From Octopus vulgaris (taxonomy: Eukaryota): a stretch of DNA of 64,000 bases. The translations under genes were made by a program, and so were the position numbers. The notes beneath the pieces are model-generated. The model did no database searches. It saw nothing but the letters and a program-made list of their open reading frames with translations, and was not told the origin of the DNA. Shown here in pieces: positions 1,012 through 50,340 of this stretch; within the stretch, counting starts at the first letter, position 1; each line of letters starts with the position of its first letter. The stretch spans positions 53,196,001 through 53,260,000 of the forward strand of contig OX597821.1 of the NCBI GenBank assembly GCA_951406725.2. The letters run 5' to 3'.

Positions 1012-1886
1012 TGTGAGAGAGAAAGTGGGTGATTGTATTTCCTCAAAACATATACAGAAATGGATGTCTTTTAAGGTACACACTCATGCAGAAAATGTGA
1101 CGTCGTCATCGTCGTGGTATGAAATGTCGTTTAGGATAGTTGAAATATAGAAATATTATCATGTTAAACTTTTGTAATGCAAATATGTAAATGAAAATGA
1201 ATTCTATCTTTTAGCTGAAAGATTAATGAATCCTTTGATATCCCATACGTCAAAATCAGCAACTAAGTTTTCGAATGTGTTTGTTAATTTCCGTAATTTA
1301 AAAAACATTTCTTTATGCTTTGGAGAGAGCAGAAATTGAAAGAGCGGAGAAAGTGAAAGATCAATTCACGTGTATATGAAATGGACGTGTTGAGTGTGTG
1401 TGTGCGTGCATGTGTGCGTGTGCGTATGTGTGTGAGAGAGAGAGAGAGAAGAAGAAAGAAAGTGAGTGAGTGAAGGTGTGCGCTGTCAGGTGTGTACTTT
1501 TTGCACATATGTGTAAGTCTCTTTCTCTTTCCCTCTCTGTCACACACACACACATCTTACATTTCATATACATAAATACATATGCATACGTCTTTTTTGT
1601 ACATATGTGTGCGTGTGCATGTGCATGAGAGAGTGAGTGACTGTCTTTCGTCATAACATATAGAGAAATGGACATATTTTAAGGTACATACACACAAAGA
1701 AAATGTGTCGTCAACGTCGTTATCGTCCTGGTATAAAATGTTTACGATGGTTGACTTATAGAAAAGATTATAATGGAAAGTTTTTGTAATGCAAATACGT
1801 AAAAGAAAAAGTCAGTTTGGTAGTCGGAGGATTACTGAACATTTTGATAGCCCGTACGTCAAAATCTGCAACTCAGTTTTCGAATG
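1012..1886 (+). repeat. Diverged direct duplication of a ~260-bp unit (1012-1277 and 1626-1886)
   Basis: Colinear shared blocks: aacatat.cagaaatgga, tttaaggtaca, agaaaatgtg.cgtc, ttttgtaatgcaaata.gtaaa, tacgtcaaaatc.gcaact.agttttcgaatg. The copies are separated by microsatellite-rich DNA. Confidence 0.8.
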
Positions 1887-2635: not shown

Positions 2636-2681
<46 letters not shown>

Positions 2682-2691
2682 TATATAGAAG

Positions 2692-2744
2692 GAGCTTCTA
2701 CAGGACTAGAACTGTTTCATTCAAGAGAAATCTTCAGGAAGCTC
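2692..2744 (-). ncRNA. Type I hammerhead ribozyme, essentially complete
   Basis: Minus strand reads GAGCTTC-CTGAAGA-TTTC TCTT GAAT-GAAA-CAG TTCTAGTC CTG-TA-GAAGCTC. Perfect 7-bp stem I, intact CUGANGA and GAAA cores, stem III, GUA cleavage triplet. One U-U mismatch at the base of stem II. AATAAA follows about 10 nt downstream. Embedded in (TA)n. Confidence 0.8.
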
Positions 2745-3900: not shown

Positions 3901-3990
3901 TTCGTCAACCAAATCGCCCCCAGGACTTATTCTTTGTGAGCCTAGTACTTATTGTATCGGCTTTTTGCCAAACGCTTTGCCAAGTTACAG
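3901..3990 (-). mobile_element. 3' body fragment of SINE family A fused to a 5S head
   Basis: Minus strand gtaacttggcaaagcgtttggcaaaaagccgatacaataagtactaggctcacaaagaataagtcctgg matches the 3' half of the SINE at 8634-9040. Confidence 0.8.
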
Positions 3991-3995
3991 AGACT

Positions 3996-4084
3996 AGCGG
4001 TCATCCATCGAAGTACAAACTGGGTTTGACGTTGCTTAACTTCGGTGATCGGACGAAAACCGGTGTTTTCAACGGGATATGGCC
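3996..4084 (-). pseudogene. 5S rRNA-derived sequence (about nt 7-95, 3'-truncated)
   Basis: Minus strand ggccatatcccgttgaaaacaccggttttcgtccgatcaccgaagttaagcaacgtcaaacccagtttgtacttcgatggatgaccgct matches metazoan 5S rRNA, including box A and box C. Confidence 0.9.
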
Positions 4085-4180
4085 ATATATATATATATAT
4101 ATATACATATACACGCATGTACGTGTATGTACAAATAGACTGACCTACGGACGCATATGCATGTATACCATTCATGATTT

Positions 4181-4220
<40 letters not shown>

Positions 4221-4719
4221 CACAATCATGAATGATAGACATAATTAATGAGATAAACATCAGATTTATTCATGAATAAGTAACGAGACAGATAAAAAGA
4301 ATTGTTACCTATTTTCAAATATATCATTCGATATTCAGAAACTACGTTATATTTATGAGTGTATGAAATATACGTTAAATTGAGAAAACAAACTGTCACC
4401 ACTTCATCTCTACCACGTAGTGGTGATGAACTCGGTATTATGTGGTTGGGACACAAATTTCTCACCACTTTGCCACGCATGTATTACTATATTTAATTCT
4501 TTTCGTTATTTACGTTGGTGATTTGGCAATTTATTGCCATATATAAAAAGAAAGAGATTACTAGGTTTTCTTAGGAAACATTATACATATGCATCTCCAA
4601 TACCGTTATGATACTGTAAATGTTAGAAGGATTTAGTAAGGAACGAAATGGGAGTTATGAAGTAGTTCACTGAGGGTGTTGTGATATAGACTTAAAGGTA
4701 GATACACGATGTATCTTCT

Positions 4720-4870
4720 AATTCTTTCCGCTTCTATCTACCAAAGCCACTGACAAGGCTTGGATCGGCCTTAGGCTATAATAGAAATGTGCTGCAGAGT
4801 GAGTTTGAACGCGGAACTATGTGGTCGAGAAGCAAACCTCTTACAGTACTGTCACCCCTGTATCCACGCC
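4720..4870 (-). mobile_element. Degenerate 5' half of SINE family A
   Basis: ctaccaaagccactgacaaggcttggatcggcc...ggaactatgtggtcgagaagcaaac is a diverged reverse complement of the family A head and core. Confidence 0.65.
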
Positions 4871-5499
4871 TATATTTGCAAATGGTTATTGAATATTATA
4901 AATCAGACATCATGCTTTCCGAACTGGTGAAAGAATACAGAAACATGAAATGTTGCTAATAATGAAACTTCACAAGCATGAACTCACTCCTGGTCTATAA
5001 TTTTAATGAATCTCAGGTTTCAAACTTATATAACTAAAGAGTAATTGATATTCTAATCACGAACACTGATTTGATACTGAGATAAATTACTGTTTAAAAT
5101 GTCCTTTAGTTGAATGAAAGATGTAAAGCGATGATAGTAGATACAATTAAGAAATTTCAAAATTAAGCAACAAATTTTCTAAACAAGATAAATAACGCAA
5201 CACACATTTGACTTACTCATTTGCGGTAACAAACAAAATCGCTTCCTCGTGTTTTTAGCGCCCAAACAAAGGGGAAAATATTAAGTTCTCAAACTGGGGA
5301 AAACTTAAGGACACAGAATACTTGTGTCGCGTAGCCAACTAGAAACGTTGTTTCTTGGGACTAAATAACAGCAACATCCGTTCCGTTTCCTGGGACTCCC
5401 ACATTAAGTTTGCAACCAACCGTCACTTTATCGTGCTGTTACTGCATAACTCTGACTGAGAAATTTAGACATGTGATATTTCTATTATTAACATTATTG

Positions 5500-5720
5500 T
5501 ATTGAAACTCACAGCGTATTTCACTGGGTATGATGGAAACTGTCAGCTGTCTACAGCCAGCAGGATAAGGTGACACTTGTTTTACTGGTCATGTTTCAAG
5601 AAACCTGCGAAGAATTCTTGCAGTTCCAAGCAATGCTGATTTTTCTAAATGTTCTTCCTTCACACTTGCACCGATCTTTTTCAGCCATGTTAGTAGTTGA
5701 GTGCTGATACTTCCAAGTGC
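5500..5720 (-). mobile_element. 3' end of an R4/Dong-clade (RLE) non-LTR retrotransposon
   Basis: Minus 5720-5589 translates ALGSISTQLLTWLKKIGASVKEEHLEKSALLGTARILRRFLET*, the typical R4/Dong C-terminus, followed by a short 3' UTR. Confidence 0.8.
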
Positions 5721-6257
5721 AGACAGTGGCTCTCATGGCTTCTGATCTTAACTGATTGGAAGTGTTATCATGTACATTGCCTTGTTTTGGTATAAAAGAT
5801 GGGGTACAGCAAATATTCTGCTCAATACCACAGATTTGCTTGTCAGTTGTTTGACTTTAACCAGTTGACCATGTCCCTATGTGGCTGACGATATGTGCAT
5901 CTCTGATCATGAACATAAGTAGTGGGGGAGCATCATAGCCGTGTGTTGAAAGGAATTATTAGATGCTTGGATAATTCACCTCTGGAAACATTAGTGGTTC
6001 GCTCAACATCCTTAAACAATCCTTATTCAGGGACGGTTTGAGCGGTATGGGCTACTCCACCAGAAGAAAATACTAACTGGGCCCCACCTGCAAGTTTATG
6101 CGCTGTTTATCTTGATATGAGATCACCATGTCACGCACATATGGTTGTGATGCATGTGCCTAGTGTACCCTTATCAGACAGGTAGTCATGATGGGTATAC
6201 TGGGCTTCGTATATTTTCCCCAGTGTCACTTTGATGGTATGCACTGCTCTCTCACTC
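5721..6257 (+). mobile_element. Non-coding interspersed repeat ending in an (AAT)n tail (probable LINE 3' UTR or SINE)
   Basis: Higher-GC block ending gcactgctctctcactc directly into (AAT)24. It abuts the R4 fragment on its left. Family assignment is inferred. Confidence 0.45.

Positions 6258-6329
<72 letters not shown>
6258..6329. repeat. (AAT)24 microsatellite
   Basis: Perfect trinucleotide run; it produces the poly-Leu in ORF 6131..6607. Confidence 0.98.
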
Positions 6330-6970
6330 CTTTTTAACTCAGGTTTTGCTGGAACACCTGGTGTCTTGCAAGCGCAGTAGGCTTGATACCTGCTGTGTAC
6401 GGTACCATGCTCTCTGTTCTTTTTAGCTAATACTTTCCTGATTATTCTGGCCGTGTCATGGAGGTAAACATTTGGTAACACTTCTACTGAGAAACCTGTT
6501 CCTATTTCCTTTACATTCCCCTTGATTCCTTTACCGGAATCCTTTTGGTAAAGAACCATTTTCTCTCTCGTAATCCTCTTTGGGATTTCCACACCGTCGT
6601 TGATCATTTCATCGATTTGCGTAGCTATTCTTTCGCGTAAGGCTTGTAACTTATTCAGCCAGTACTTTTGTACTCCATCCGGGTCTTATATCTATTTTGG
6701 AACCTTAGTTATCTCCTCGGTTACCATTTCAGTTGTTATTCCTAAAATGTTCTGCTTCACTTCATTTTCTCTTATTTTAATTCAACCATTCAGCATTTTT
6801 CATATGATTCATTCATTTTCCCAGATGTTACTCCAGAACATCCTACTTTCTTCAGCATCAGATTTCTCATTTCTGTAAACCTTTCCGTTTAGCTGCTAGT
6901 AAACCCTAGGATCCTACTGGAAAAATTTAACCATTTGGTATTGTCCATTTCTTTGATCCTATACAGATAT
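6330..6970 (-). mobile_element. Internally deleted R4/Dong-clade LINE
   Basis: Minus strand shows DAEESRMFWSNIWENE, DPDGVQKYWLNKLQALRERIATQ and EIPKRITREKMVLYQKDSGKG (start of RT) joined directly to the C-terminal TARIIRKVL, then a 3' UTR running into the TAA repeat. Confidence 0.8.
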
Positions 6971-9769: not shown

Positions 9770-10370
9770 TTATTTTTTTACTACCCAGGAGGGTCTACAC
9801 AGAGAGGGGACAAACAAGGACAGACAAACGGATTAAGTCGATTATGGCGACCCCAGTGCGTAACTGGTACTTATTTAATCGATGCCGACCGGATGAAAGG
9901 CTAAGTCGACCTCGGCGGAATTTGAATTCAGAACGTAGCGGCAAATGAACTACCTATTTCTTTACTACCCACAAGGGGCTAAACATAGAGGGGACAAACA
10001 AGGACAGACATATGTATTAAGTCGATTACATCGACCCTAGTGTGTAACTGGTACTTAATTTTCGACCCCGAAAGGATGAAAGGCTAAGTCGACCTCGGCG
10101 GAATTTGAATTCAGAACGTAGCGGCAGACGAAATACCTATTTCTTTACTACTCACAAGGGGCTAAGCATAGAGGGGACAAACAAGGACATACATAGGTAT
10201 TAAGTCGATTACATCGACCCCAGTGTGTAACTGGTACTTAATTTATCGACTCCGAAAGGATGAAAGACTAAGTCGACCTCGGTGGAATTTGAATTCAGAA
10301 CGTAGCGGCAGACGAAATACCGCTAAGCATTTTGCCCGGTGTGCTAACGATTCTGCCAGCTCGTCGCCTT
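9770..10370 (-). mobile_element. Trimeric tRNA-derived SINE (family B, Meta-domain-like) with a 16-bp TSD
   Basis: One head plus three ~183-bp bodies containing gtcgacttagcctttcatcctttcggggtcga..agtaccag. TSD tattaactgcatcgtc at 9754-9769 and 10371-10386. Confidence 0.9.
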
Positions 10371-15864: not shown

Positions 15865-18056
15865 TAAGTAATGTTTCAGTATTGATGCAAAACATCTACC
15901 GACATGCTCATCAAAATCCCTTCACCAAATGATCTTAAACTTAGACCAATAATAGCAGGCCCAGCATGTGAGACTCACTGCCTCAGCAACCTCTTAGACA
16001 CACTTCTTAAACCTTTTCTAAAGCACATCAAATGCTACGTAAGAGACGATATAGACATGCTTAACTACCTCCCTAAAACAGTCAATGAGAAAACCCTACT
16101 AGTATCCTTCGACGTAATTAACCTTTATTCAAACATCCCTCACACCCTAGGAATAGAAGCGATCGCTTTCTGGCTAAACAACAACTCCTTTGAACTTCCA
16201 ACTCGCATAAATAAAGAACTCATAATAGAAGAACTTAGATTTATTTTAGAAAACAATTACTTTATTTTTGATAATAATTACTACAGACAAAGATCGGGAA
16301 CAGCGATGAGAACGCGTACTGCGCCTTATTTTGCCAACCTAGTGATGGGATACCTCGAGATAATACTCTACCAAAAAACACTCGAGAAATATGGAAGCAC
16401 TTTCTCCACCTATATCCAGAACAATTGGAAAAGATATCTCGATGACTGCTTCATCATCTGGGATGAAAGTATAGAAAAACTTGAGGAATTTAAAATACTA
16501 TGAAATGGAATAAATGAAAATATTCAGTTCACGATAGATGATAATGAAGAAAAATTGCCATTTTTAGACATCCTCATTAAGAAAGTCGGCAACAAAATAG
16601 AGACAGATATCTATTATAAACCGACAGACTCCAAGCAGTACCTACCCTTTGATTCATGCCATCCAAGACACACTAGAATAAATATCCCTTTCTGTTTAGC
16701 CAGAAGGATTTGCACCATAATATCAGACACAAACACCCAACACACACATCTCCAGGAATTCAGAACTACACTCATAAATAGAAATTATCCACAGCCCCTA
16801 ATAGACAGTGCAATCCAACGAGCACTTAAATTAAGTATAGAAGACCTGAGACAAGCAAAACCAAAAAAGAAAGAAAGATTAAAAACCCTACCCTACATCT
16901 CTACATACAACCCACTTAACAATGAGGCCTCCAACACCATACTAAAAAGCACATCCCTACTCAAGGGAGACCCAAAGATGAACCTAATCCTCCAAACACA
17001 CACCATCATTAAAAGTAAACGGCAACCAAAATCCTTAAAAAAGATTTTAATCCAAGCTAAACCGCACTCAACAACAACCACAAAATCAGCAGTTAGAAAA
17101 TGTGGAAAGACTAACTGCGGAATTTGTGTCATCTTGGTAGAAGGTTCAGAATTCACATTAGAACAAGGCCATCAGTTTACCATCTGAACAAACTTCACCT
17201 GTGCATCAGAAAACTTAATTTACGTGTTAACATGCGCAGGGTGCAATAGTATATAGGCCATACAAAAAACAGCCTACGAAAAAGGATGGCGGTGCATAAA
17301 TCCCATATTAAGAATCCTGAATACAGGAAAATACCAGTCAGCGGACACATAGATAGATGTGCTTCACATAAAAATCCCTAATTCACAACCTTCCCACTTT
17401 ACAAATTCAGTGACAGCGTAACCTTCACTCAACGCCAAAATAAAGAACTTTATTTTATTAGAAAATTCGGACCAAGTTTGAACACCCTGGGCCAGGAACA
17501 GTAAAGCAATACATTGGTCTTTCGAAAAGAAAAATGGAATTCTACCACTACCACCACGTTCACTACTACTGCTGCTGCTATTACTACTACTACAACCACC
17601 GTGGTCACTACTATTACTACTACGATCAACAGTCTTCCACTGCTGCTGTTGCCACTGCCACAGCTAAGCTGCTACTACGACTGCTCCAACCAATCAGCAG
17701 CTGCAACCCCAACTACCACCACCACCACCACCACGGTTACTACTACTACGACCAACAGTCACTGCTGCTACTGCCTTTTCAGCCACTGACCATTACCTTA
17801 GTTCTATTCGAATACATAAGACAACTATTATGCTTACTCCCCACAAAAAACCACCACGTGGATTCTATTGAGACCAGTAAGAAATTATTATGAACTTTTT
17901 TAAATATTTAACTTTTTAAAATATTTTTGATAAGGTTGGTTTTTTCAAGAAGAACCGAAACGTAAAATTTCTATGAAAATAAAAATTTATCTTATATAGA
18001 GGCGTTTTCAAACTTCTTTTTTATAAATATATACCCACTCGTATACGACCTACACT

Positions 18057-31701: not shown

Positions 31702-32430
31702 GTATAAATCTCTTTGTCCACGAGCAATCTGGAACTGTTTGAAGCTGATGAAAAGAATTTTCTTGCTCGTTTCATTACTTTGGACGAAAGTTGGGTTCAT
31801 CACAACCTTGAGCCAAAGATCAATCAAAGCAGTGGAAGCACACATCTTCTCCTACATCAAAAGAAGACCAGGTCATTCCTTCAGCAGGCACGGTCATGGC
31901 GTCAGTTTTTTGGGGATTCTCAAGGTGTCTTGCTGATCGATTACCTTGAAATGGGTCACACCGTGACAGCGCTGTATTATTCTCAGCTACTGAAATGCCT
32001 CCGAGAAGCAATCAAAGAACAAAAAAAAAAGGAATGCTCACCAGAGGAATCCTTTTTCATCACGACAATGCTCCAGCCCACACCTCAGTGGTTGCCATGG
32101 CAACAATTCGTGGTTGTGGATATGAACTTGCTCCCCCATCCACCTTATTCGCCAGACTTAGCCCCCTCCGACTTACATCTATTCCCAAAAATGAAAAAAA
32201 GCCCTGGCTGGCCGCCATTTTGCCACTGACAATGACGTCATAGACGCTGTAGGAAGTTTCCTGTAGTCTCAAACAAAAGAGTTTCTCTACGCCGGGATAA
32301 TAGCGCTTCAGCACCGATGGAGAAAGTGTTCAGCCATCGAGGGGCGGATTATATTAAAAAATAAATCATCAGAAGTCTTGTACTATGTTTTGTTACTTTG
32401 AGGCTCAAGACTTTTCATACACTCCTCGTA
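31702..32430 (+). mobile_element. Mariner (DD34D) transposase pseudogene, 3' half with right terminus
   Basis: FITLDESWVHH, GVLLIDYL, LFHHDNAPAH, HPPYSPDLAPSDLHLFP and LQHRWRKC across frameshifts. Ends cttttcatacactcctcgTA. Confidence 0.92.
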
Positions 32431-46525: not shown

Positions 46526-47783
46526 AAATAAGTTATTTCACATGAAATATCGCATCTTTAATTACTTGTTATTTTAGTAATTTAAAAACTCAATTATGTA
46601 TACCTTGCATCTAATTTTGACTCTTTTTCTTTCCCAACAATATTGGTATACAAAATTCGCATCCACAGATCTTATAAAAATGATAACAACCAAACTATGT
46701 TGTGTGATTTTCTCCTATGAGCACAAACTGGACCACTCTGATGTAGAAGCTCTACGGAAAATCAAGCGGGCCTTTGGTAATGGTTTTTTTGACATCAGAT
46801 CTGTTCAGAAATGGTTCCAAAGCTCCCGTTCAGGAAATTATAGCCTTGAGAATAAACCAAGGAGTAGGCCAAAATCAATTATTCGGCATGATTGATTAAA
46901 TGCTTTGGTTGAACAAAATCCGAGAACAAAGGTTGGAAAACTTTCATCAAAACTCCAAACATCTCGCACAACTGTTTTTGGACACCTGTAAAACATTGGA
47001 AAAGTCAAGAAATCAAATAGGTTTGTTCCGCATCAACCGAGCGAGATTGAAAAATAACCAGACGCCTCGAAGTGTGCTCCTTATTGTTTTCTCGACTGGA
47101 AAACAAAAACATTTTTGCACCGAATTAATACTTGTAATGAGAAATGGATATTCTTTGACAACAGCAAGAGAACAGGACAGTGATTAGATGCAGGAGAGTC
47201 ATCTAAACACTACCCAAAACCATCATTGCACTCTAAAAAGTTAGTGGCCACTATATGGTGGTCTGTGAATAGAGTTATTCATTATTCATATTTGCAACAA
47301 GGAAAAACTGTAACAGCAACATCGTATTGCCAGGAAATTGATTGTATGCATGAGGATTTGGAAAAGAAGCAACCTAGACTAGTGAATAGATTTGGCCCAA
47401 TTTTCCTTCACGATAAAGCACGTCCTCACACTCCTCAAGCTACGGTCCAAAAGTTGCAAACCCTAAATTATGAGATTTTGCAACTTCTTTCCTATTCCCA
47501 TGATAACTTTCCTACTGATCATCACTTATTTAAGCATTTTGAGCTTTACATAGGCAATAAAACATTCTTAAATAGAGAAGAGGTAATTGAAGCATTCGGA
47601 CAGTTGATCAAAGCAAAAGATGATTTTTAAAAAAAAAAGACTGAATATATGACATAGAGAAACGTTAGGTAAACGTCATGAATGAACATGGATGATACTT
47701 TGATTTAATAAATCAGTTCTGTAACACTTCTGAAACATTTTATTCTTACCTTTCAAATACATTTCATGTAAAACAACCTAATA
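46526..47783 (+). mobile_element. Near full-length mariner element (Hsmar1/cecropia-like), pseudogenised
   Basis: About 1.26 kb with degenerate TIRs aataagttatttcacatgaaat / atttcatgtaaaacaacctaata. Motifs SVQKWFQ..RSGNYSLENKPRS, FVPH, TCNEKWIFFDN, IWWS..VIHY, LHDKARPH, PTDHHLFKHF. Confidence 0.92.
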
Positions 47784-49184: not shown

Positions 49185-50340
49185 GATACTCTCATGGTTG
49201 ATCAAAAAGTAGTCAACAACAGATATAACGTCATCATTACTTCGATACTAGTTCCCTGGTAAGTGGGGTTTTTTTTCATGTTGGGGAACAGATGATAGTC
49301 AGATGAACTAAATCGGGAAAATAGGGAAAGTGATGAACCGCTTCAAAGTCACAGTCACGCACAGCAGCAATTAAAACCCAAACTTATCTTCTGGAGCTTG
49401 TCCTGATAAAATAAGACCTCTCTCGTCAGTTTTTCTGGCGTTTGGTGTTGATAGTCTTTCGTAACTGTCTCGGCAAGTTGGTGCAGTACTCACCATTAAT
49501 TGTGTTGCCCTATTGAAGATTGTTAGTAAACACAATGCCTTTTACATCCCCCAAACCCTGCAGATGAAACGACTGTGGAGTTCTAGGCATATTACCGACG
49601 ATTTGAACAAATTTTCGAAAAAGAATACTAAGACGGGGACGGATGAAATGAAAACATGTCTAATTCTGAGGAAACTGGCGATGACAGAGCACAAACAATA
49701 CTCTAACTTTATATTGCCTAAAAATGTTTCTAACATAAATTTCACGGACACAGTTGACATTTTATGTAGGATGTTTAGTGAAAGAACATCGTTGTTCAAC
49801 ACGTTGCAAGAGTTTGAACACTGATAAAGGCAATGACGAAGACTTTACTACTTATGAGTAGTGAACAGAGAGTGCGAGAGATTTAAACTGGATAAACTAA
49901 CTCCAGACTCGTTCAAGTACCTGAATTTTTTTCAGGGATTTACTGCTAAAGAGGACGCAGAAGTCACAACGAAAATTCTCGCTAAGCTGGAAATGCTCCA
50001 GCTTAAAACTCTCCAGTCAATCGCCAGTCATCCATCACAATCAGAAGAATACGATCAATGTCTTCCACCGTGGTAACAGTCTCAGAATTTGAGTCCTGTT
50101 CAAGATTCTCCCTTCCCCTCCTAAATTCAGCAGTCAACTTTTGTGCTGTTGAGCGTCATCCCCTAAAGTATCAACGATGTCAGCATGAATGTCCTTGGGA
50201 GCTAACCGTTTCCTTCAGGTGCTTCATGACACCACAATATCAAATTTTGTCCATTGTAAGAGAGGTCACTATTAGTTACTTTCGAAGTCTTCTTTGAACA
50301 ATCTGATGTCAATTTACGTTGTTAGAAAAAATACATTTCT
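49185..50340 (-). mobile_element. Mariner remnant split into N-terminal (50010-50340) and C-terminal (49185-49558) parts
   Basis: Minus strand: GLAPKDIHADIV, AEFRRGRENLE, IVMDDWRLT; then GNTINGEY, VLFYQDK, SDYHLFPNMKK, YRSNDDVISVV. Confidence 0.8.
49565..49995 (+). mobile_element. Gypsy-type LTR retrotransposon gag fragment nested in the mariner
   Basis: LILRKLAMTEHKQYSNFILPK..FTDTVDIL..FSERTSLFNT..EDFTTY..VNRECERFKLDKLTPDSFK matches the K02A2.6-like Gypsy gag N-terminal region. Confidence 0.75.

Follow-up and report, generated by a model that had tools for sequence, protein, structure and literature searches.

A 69-bp fragment of a Hydra-clade Penelope-like element with a hammerhead motif in a (TA)n tract of Octopus vulgaris, likely left by abortive reverse transcription

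The window analyzed in this work, a stretch of 64,000 nucleotides of the Octopus vulgaris genome, carries within a (TA)n tract a 69-bp fragment of a Hydra-clade Penelope-like element (PLE), which is likely the product of an abortive reverse transcription in which the 5' end of an uncleaved, capped element RNA was copied. The insert consists of one G (2744) and of positions +1 to +68 of the pLTR of the element (2743-2676), where +1 is the first base of stem I of a hammerhead motif. The features of the locus are the following:

2744, minus strand: extra G at the 5' junction; the parental pLTR has T or C there, and the G makes a seventh stem I pair
2692-2743, minus strand: type I hammerhead, +1 to +52 of the putative pLTR transcript, with a 6-bp stem I; identical to the pLTR of the full-length element L091
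2698-2699, minus strand: predicted cleavage site after GUA, from the sequence and the established hammerhead consensus
2676-2691, minus strand: short tail, +53 to +68, including AATAAA (2682-2677, +62 to +67); it closes at +68, where one of the family's two fixed 3' ends lies
2684-2702, minus strand: predicted competing 8-bp hairpin, +42 to +60, which in the fold of the parental RNA takes up the cleavage site together with the 3' strand of stem I
2745-2952, no strand assigned: 5' flank of the insert, a degenerate (TA)n target tract, from repeat detection
2594-2675, no strand assigned: 3' flank of the insert, a degenerate (TA)n target tract, from repeat detection

Direct reading of the minus strand from 2744 to 2692 gives a type I hammerhead motif with three stems and the elements CUGANGA, GAAA and NUH. 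Both core boxes (CUGAAGA and GAAA) are intact, stem I has 7 bp, stem II has a U·U at its base followed by 3 bp and a 4-nt loop, and stem III has its full 4 bp with a near-palindromic loop of 8 nt. The predicted cut after GUA would fall between 2699 and 2698, that is, between +45 and +46. The minus-strand hammerhead with intact cores and a GUA site announced in an earlier note is thus present as described, and a loose type I descriptor, run against both strands, matched nowhere else in the window; in 200 dinucleotide shuffles this descriptor gave 0.05 matches per window and a strict one gave 0. The Rfam hammerhead models did not match the motif, neither at the gathering score nor at E<=10. Its folding energy was unexceptional (z -0.66), and stem II was absent from the minimum-energy fold, with a predicted pair probability of about 0.05 in an identical copy.

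Instead of the G10.1-C11.1 pair closing stem II, the motif has the U·U, which the earlier note had regarded as a flaw. We disagree with this view, since every native subfamily haplotype seen has the U·U, as do 14 of the 25 families published for the Hydra clade, whose pLTR hammerhead is listed as canonical (supplementary file S2 of PMC8557442); judged by this comparison of sequences, it is a trait of the clade and no damage. The perfect 7-bp stem I and the downstream AATAAA, a putative polyA signal, that had been pointed out are both there, but the seventh pair comes from a G that the parent does not have, and AATAAA also marks a fixed 3' end of insertions, of which there are two. As for the insertion into a TA tract, (TA)n does lie on both sides; however, it forms two degenerate arrays (detected at 2594-2687 and 2745-2952), and the insert reaches 2676, 16 nt past the end of the motif to which it had been limited.

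The search of the genome (2.8 Gb in 227 contigs) showed at least 4,532 exact copies of the first 33 nt of the motif and 8,129 of a 23-mer at its 3' side. One motif copy continues into an RT-like ORF, and among 30 fetched loci with such an ORF the ribozyme was located about 130 nt upstream of the query start in 26. In L091, a 713-aa ORF (RT/GIY-YIG) lies between two pLTRs separated by 4,784 bp; full-length elements carry the same 52 nt twice, around the ORF, which is the partial-tandem arrangement of a Penelope-like pLTR. Two further loci presented pLTR spacings of 5,104 and 5,387 bp, so that both pLTRs were visible in three of the six long loci fetched (4784-5387 bp apart), and within the stretch fetched the other three had the 5' pLTR copy only. 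The copy number, the (TA)n flanks and the linked Penelope ORF for which the earlier note had suggested looking were all found, and its reading of the insert as a very short pLTR insertion was borne out, as the sequence is +1 to +68 of the pLTR of an autonomous Hydra-clade element.

The 713-aa ORF contains the motifs RWR, DKT, CNCPDKTTC (CxCX5C), CDLC (CxxC) and CMH (CxH) and a C-terminal VY..YIG of the GIY-YIG type. The Hydra clade is defined by an RWK-type motif, DKT, a CxCX5C linker, CxxC and CxH, together with GIY-YIG at the C-terminus (PMC8557442), and it shares with our family the (TA)n target as well as the optional tail at one end and the inverted 5' copies, as described in the same source. 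Placed by its motifs and its target, the parent is a Hydra-clade PLE with a unit of 4.8-5.4 kb. Naiad was rejected as its clade, given the C-terminal endonuclease and the Hydra-type motifs. The ORF itself was not recognised in Pfam and PDB sequence searches, where a VtrA_C match stayed below the cut-off; its top homologue (P0001) has a GIY-YIG domain. Among 8,000 candidates we counted 1,118 homologues of the ORF, most of those listed being near 40% identity.

The octopus family differs from Hydra-1_Obim, included in PMC8557442, by eye in both the hammerhead and the N-terminus. Compared with what that source gives for the clade, its unit is longer (4.8-5.4 kb against typically <3 kb), because of a microsatellite-rich 3' UTR of 2.5-3 kb, and its tail measures 73 nt against 30-40. 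In L091 the 2.5-kb 3' UTR (3914-6372 of that locus) is mostly (TA), (TG) and (TATG) microsatellite, which means that the element spreads microsatellites and its own target sites. The parental stem I has 6 bp, and its first A is preceded by T or C. In the 54 copies that have native upstream sequence, changes that recur were confined to N7, loop II and loop III, in agreement with the conservation of stems and core that the earlier note had proposed to check; a stem was broken in two single copies, and compensatory pair changes were not seen in these 54. All in all, the window copy is a commonplace by-product of a family that is new within a clade already known.

The family has two fixed 3' ends, +68 (short tail) and +141 (long tail), used by 46 and 54 of 100 copies, respectively. 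This census took the first 100 matches of a 3'-anchored pattern, all from contig C1, against six references, by an ungapped extension that makes the upstream values rough. The 5' boundary was at +1 in 23 copies, from +2 to +10 in 32 and further inside in 14; it was within -10 to -1 in a single copy, from -29 to -11 in 7 and further upstream in 23. Hence the ribozyme, its first base included, holds the start of 69 of the 100 copies, as against 1 in the 10 nt upstream. In the haplotypes with native upstream sequence (chosen by the presence of the -29 box, within 1 nt), TATAAAT or CATAAAT is found at -29 together with Y(-1)A(+1), so that +1 lies 29 nt after the TATA box, at the short end of the usual spacing. 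The edge in the 5' boundaries, together with the TATA-like box and the Y(-1)A(+1) dinucleotide, leads us to infer that transcription starts with the first base of stem I. An objection is that AGCT-centred palindromes account for 13 of the 23 copies beginning at +1, and such palindromes could by themselves draw junctions to this point. Four contig sets cover the element, with loose ends at +1, near +68 and at +141, these being assembly ends and not transcript starts or a measure of expression.

Another aspect to consider is the G at 2744. Genome-wide, the base preceding the 33-mer in the 4,532 copies was the native T in 2,623 and G in 767. This figure alone proves little, because among 70 G-preceded copies the base could have been taken from an inverted arm in 33 and from stem I microhomology in 3. 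For this reason the counts that matter here are those of copies joined straight to (TA)n. At +1 these amounted to 74 matches, counted by hand and corresponding to 72 loci, with two G loci representing one local duplication; the preceding base was G in 41, T in 13, C in 11 and A in 7, and GG in none. In TA-joined copies cut inside the ribozyme, an untemplated G was present in at most 4 of 51 loci among the matches listed (100 of 105 rows, counted by hand), against 41 of 72 at +1 (Fisher p 1e-8). The G-copies were distributed over six subfamily haplotypes and both tail types (30 TA-joined loci), so the G arose repeatedly. Copying of the cap by reverse transcription has been invoked for such a G in L1 and SVA (PMC2912911), and the G at 2744 is likely a copy of the RNA cap. 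Our search of openly readable papers brought up no description of a G derived from the cap in PLEs, nor of their transcription starting at the ribozyme. At one place (L148-L149) two G-started copies are found in series, 547 bp apart, in the order G, ribozyme, part of the ORF, and again G, ribozyme, short tail; this arrangement looks like a template jump after reaching the 5' end.

The same PLE fragment could have acquired its G and the accumulation of ends at +1 in a different way, by fold-back of the cDNA or template switching on stem I and on the AGCT palindrome, with no capped 5' end involved. If the end of the cDNA snaps onto a copy of the 3' strand of stem I, G is indeed the next templated base, and a switch of this kind was seen in 3 of the 70 G-copies; the AGCT palindromes make up 13 of the 23 copies at +1, and a second hammerhead family, described below, lacks the G. 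Such fold-back, however, should often reach GG or AGG, and GG was found in none of the 72 TA-joined loci; it also leaves the TATA box at -29 and the nearly empty zone from -10 to -1 unexplained. We consider this explanation rather unlikely.

We return to the abortive copying of a capped RNA, the course of which we propose on the basis of the pLTR identity, the copy number, the fixed ends, the TATA spacing and the extra G. RNA polymerase II would initiate 29 nt after TATAAAT, on the base that opens stem I, and the GIY-YIG domain of the element would nick (TA)n. Priming by the RT would be internal, at +68 or +141, sites at which the RNA resembles TA; if the template is a linear capped monomer, use of the 5' copy of the priming site would leave only 68 or 141 nt to be copied. 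It would then run off to the cap, adding a C opposite to it. Joining of this cDNA to the far (TA)n end would produce a solo copy as in the window, of which about 72 occur at +1. Far more often, the cDNA would be joined to a second one, primed on the other strand at the other site, giving an inverted pair. For the copy in the window, the most likely course is a nick of the (TA)n tract by the element's endonuclease, priming of the RT at +68 on an uncleaved capped transcript, synthesis of 68 nt up to the cap, addition of one base, and joining of the product to the other (TA)n end.

Regarding the inverted pairs, close head-to-head pairs among the fetched loci combined a long and a short tail in 83 of 85 cases and two long tails in 2 of 85. 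This strict pairing suggests a coordinated use of the two tail sites; the alternative is that inverted pairs form by fold-back of a single cDNA. The presence of a tail at one end only was already described for the Hydra clade (PMC8557442), and neither the ribozyme start site nor the extra G nor the strict long/short pairing is among the features that we found described there. An experimental parallel is the Poseidon_Ac (PAc) protein of the lizard Anolis carolinensis, which in vitro initiated internally at two sites that define the tail, with an AT-rich target, extension of both strands and use of uncleaved RNA as template (PMC11167929). According to that report, Poseidon_Ac belongs to a different clade, its ribozyme overlaps the start codon, its start sites are AC-rich without homology to the target, and the start site did not differ between strands in vitro. 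In the octopus family, in contrast, the ribozyme is at least 132 nt upstream of the ATG, both ends are TA-like, and the inverted pairs are long plus short in 83 of 85.

A further possibility is that ribozyme and tail form a non-autonomous mobile unit, a retrozyme monomer or SINE-like, amplified from its own masters. There are dozens of near-identical solo copies in (TA)n, and animal retrozymes have been reported as derived from PLE pLTRs (bioRxiv 10.64898/2026.07.22.740005). Non-LTR retrozymes are, like our copy, small non-coding units with a type I hammerhead related to a pLTR; unlike it, they are defined by tandem units each with a hammerhead, and the window holds a single copy and the fetched loci no head-to-tail arrays of units. 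Nine same-strand pairs lie within 600 bp of each other; they represent local duplications, template jumps or nested insertions, and not arrays of units. Furthermore, the solo copies lack the TATA box and also the downstream ORF region which, in PMC11167929, was required for binding of the Poseidon protein. They mirror six haplotypes of autonomous type with both tails, and some 72 TA-joined solos stand against thousands of pLTRs. Since G-solos occur in six haplotypes and with both tails, repeated by-products are to be expected and not the progeny of one master. An independent unit of this kind is thus very unlikely, and the terms 'minimal mobile unit' and 'stand-alone' in the earlier note are not supported, the same sequence being the pLTR of an autonomous element.

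Solo PLE hammerheads are, on the other hand, a described and abundant class in metazoans, where thousands of single motifs and opposite-strand pairs were attributed to truncated PLEs (PMC4209133). The motif shares with them a stem III capable of dimerization, and differs from those described there in that stem III is a full 4 bp long and closed by a loop of 8 nt, stem II is short, and U·U takes the place of G10.1-C11.1.

A second hammerhead family was detected with 186 exact matches, of which 30 were examined (L265-L294, around position 1500). Its 5' ends are clustered about 30 nt before the core, hairpin pairs are present, and its copies end in (TA)n with short and long tails. None of the four TA-joined copies among the 30 examined of 186 carried the extra G, so the G pattern is shown for one family only. 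Two different upstream sequences join this family at one point about 10 nt before the core, and one of them ends in TTTTAG, resembling a splice acceptor; it may be compared with the intron end at helix I in the Penelope of Drosophila virilis. A third, degenerate hammerhead-like motif, with a palindromic CCGG stem III, was noted at 1610-1680 (minus strand) of locus L004, where it shares a (TA)n tract with a copy of the main family and lies about 50 nt upstream of it.

As regards the activity of the ribozyme, folding predictions for the parental RNA place the cut site within the 8-bp hairpin at +42 to +60, with a drop of stem I pairing to about 0.25, and dimeric pairing of the stem III region is also predicted, at -14.2 kcal/mol compared with -2.1 for the hairpin. 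With the extra G, in the context of +1 to +68, predicted stem I pairing rises from about 0.25 to about 0.85, and stem II remains near 0.05 in copies identical to that of the window. Metazoan PLE hammerheads cleave poorly in vitro (PMC4209133) or depend on the element's protein for cleavage (PMC11167929). The parental ribozyme is probably functional but slow or regulated, which fits the need for uncut templates and the low activity published in PMC4209133. In the parent RNA, cleavage would detach a capped leader of 45 nt and shorten the 3' end.

The earlier note had also raised the possibility that the copy cleaves in cis a minus-strand host transcript at present, whatever its origin. The motif is intact and identical to young copies, and the G lifts its predicted stem I pairing. 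Nevertheless, predicted stem II pairing is about 0.05, the published hammerheads of this type cleave poorly or depend on the element's protein, nothing singles out this copy, and no host exon was recognised nearby: a Pfam search of 23 selected ORFs of the window gave transposon-type domains only, and one of 33 ORFs in the 20 kb upstream gave no match, although short exons would escape both. We judge this activity extremely improbable and the hammerhead of the copy to be a passenger.

The window contains other features as well. A 5S rRNA-like copy at 3967-4090 (minus strand) scores above the Rfam gathering threshold (57.4 bits) with several broken pairs, and is probably a pseudogene or else a repeat derived from 5S. 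A SINE-like unit of 183 bp is present three times in tandem at 9771-10321, with 91% identity. Fragments of RT, mariner-type transposases and a DUF7083 domain were identified with Pfam at 15886-16500, 31708-32226, 46581-47627 and 49465-49821.

By itself the copy in the window matters little, as it belongs to an abundant class already described. The family is the useful object, being young, its ORF intact and its junctions numbering in the thousands. The function of PLE hammerheads has been stated as unclear (PMC8557442), and a published hypothesis holds that cleavage helps to make circular templates for full-length copies. We tentatively propose, at somewhat less than an even chance, that in this Hydra family, whose hammerhead begins at the start site, the junctions record two fates of the RNA: the uncleaved capped form would give G-marked solo or hairpin insertions with coordinated tail sites, and the cleaved form would serve as a circular or jump-competent template for full-length copies. 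If true, this would be in vivo evidence on what PLE hammerheads do, and the edge at +1, the extra G and the long/short pairing constitute specific predictions for 5'-end mapping and for in vitro transposition.
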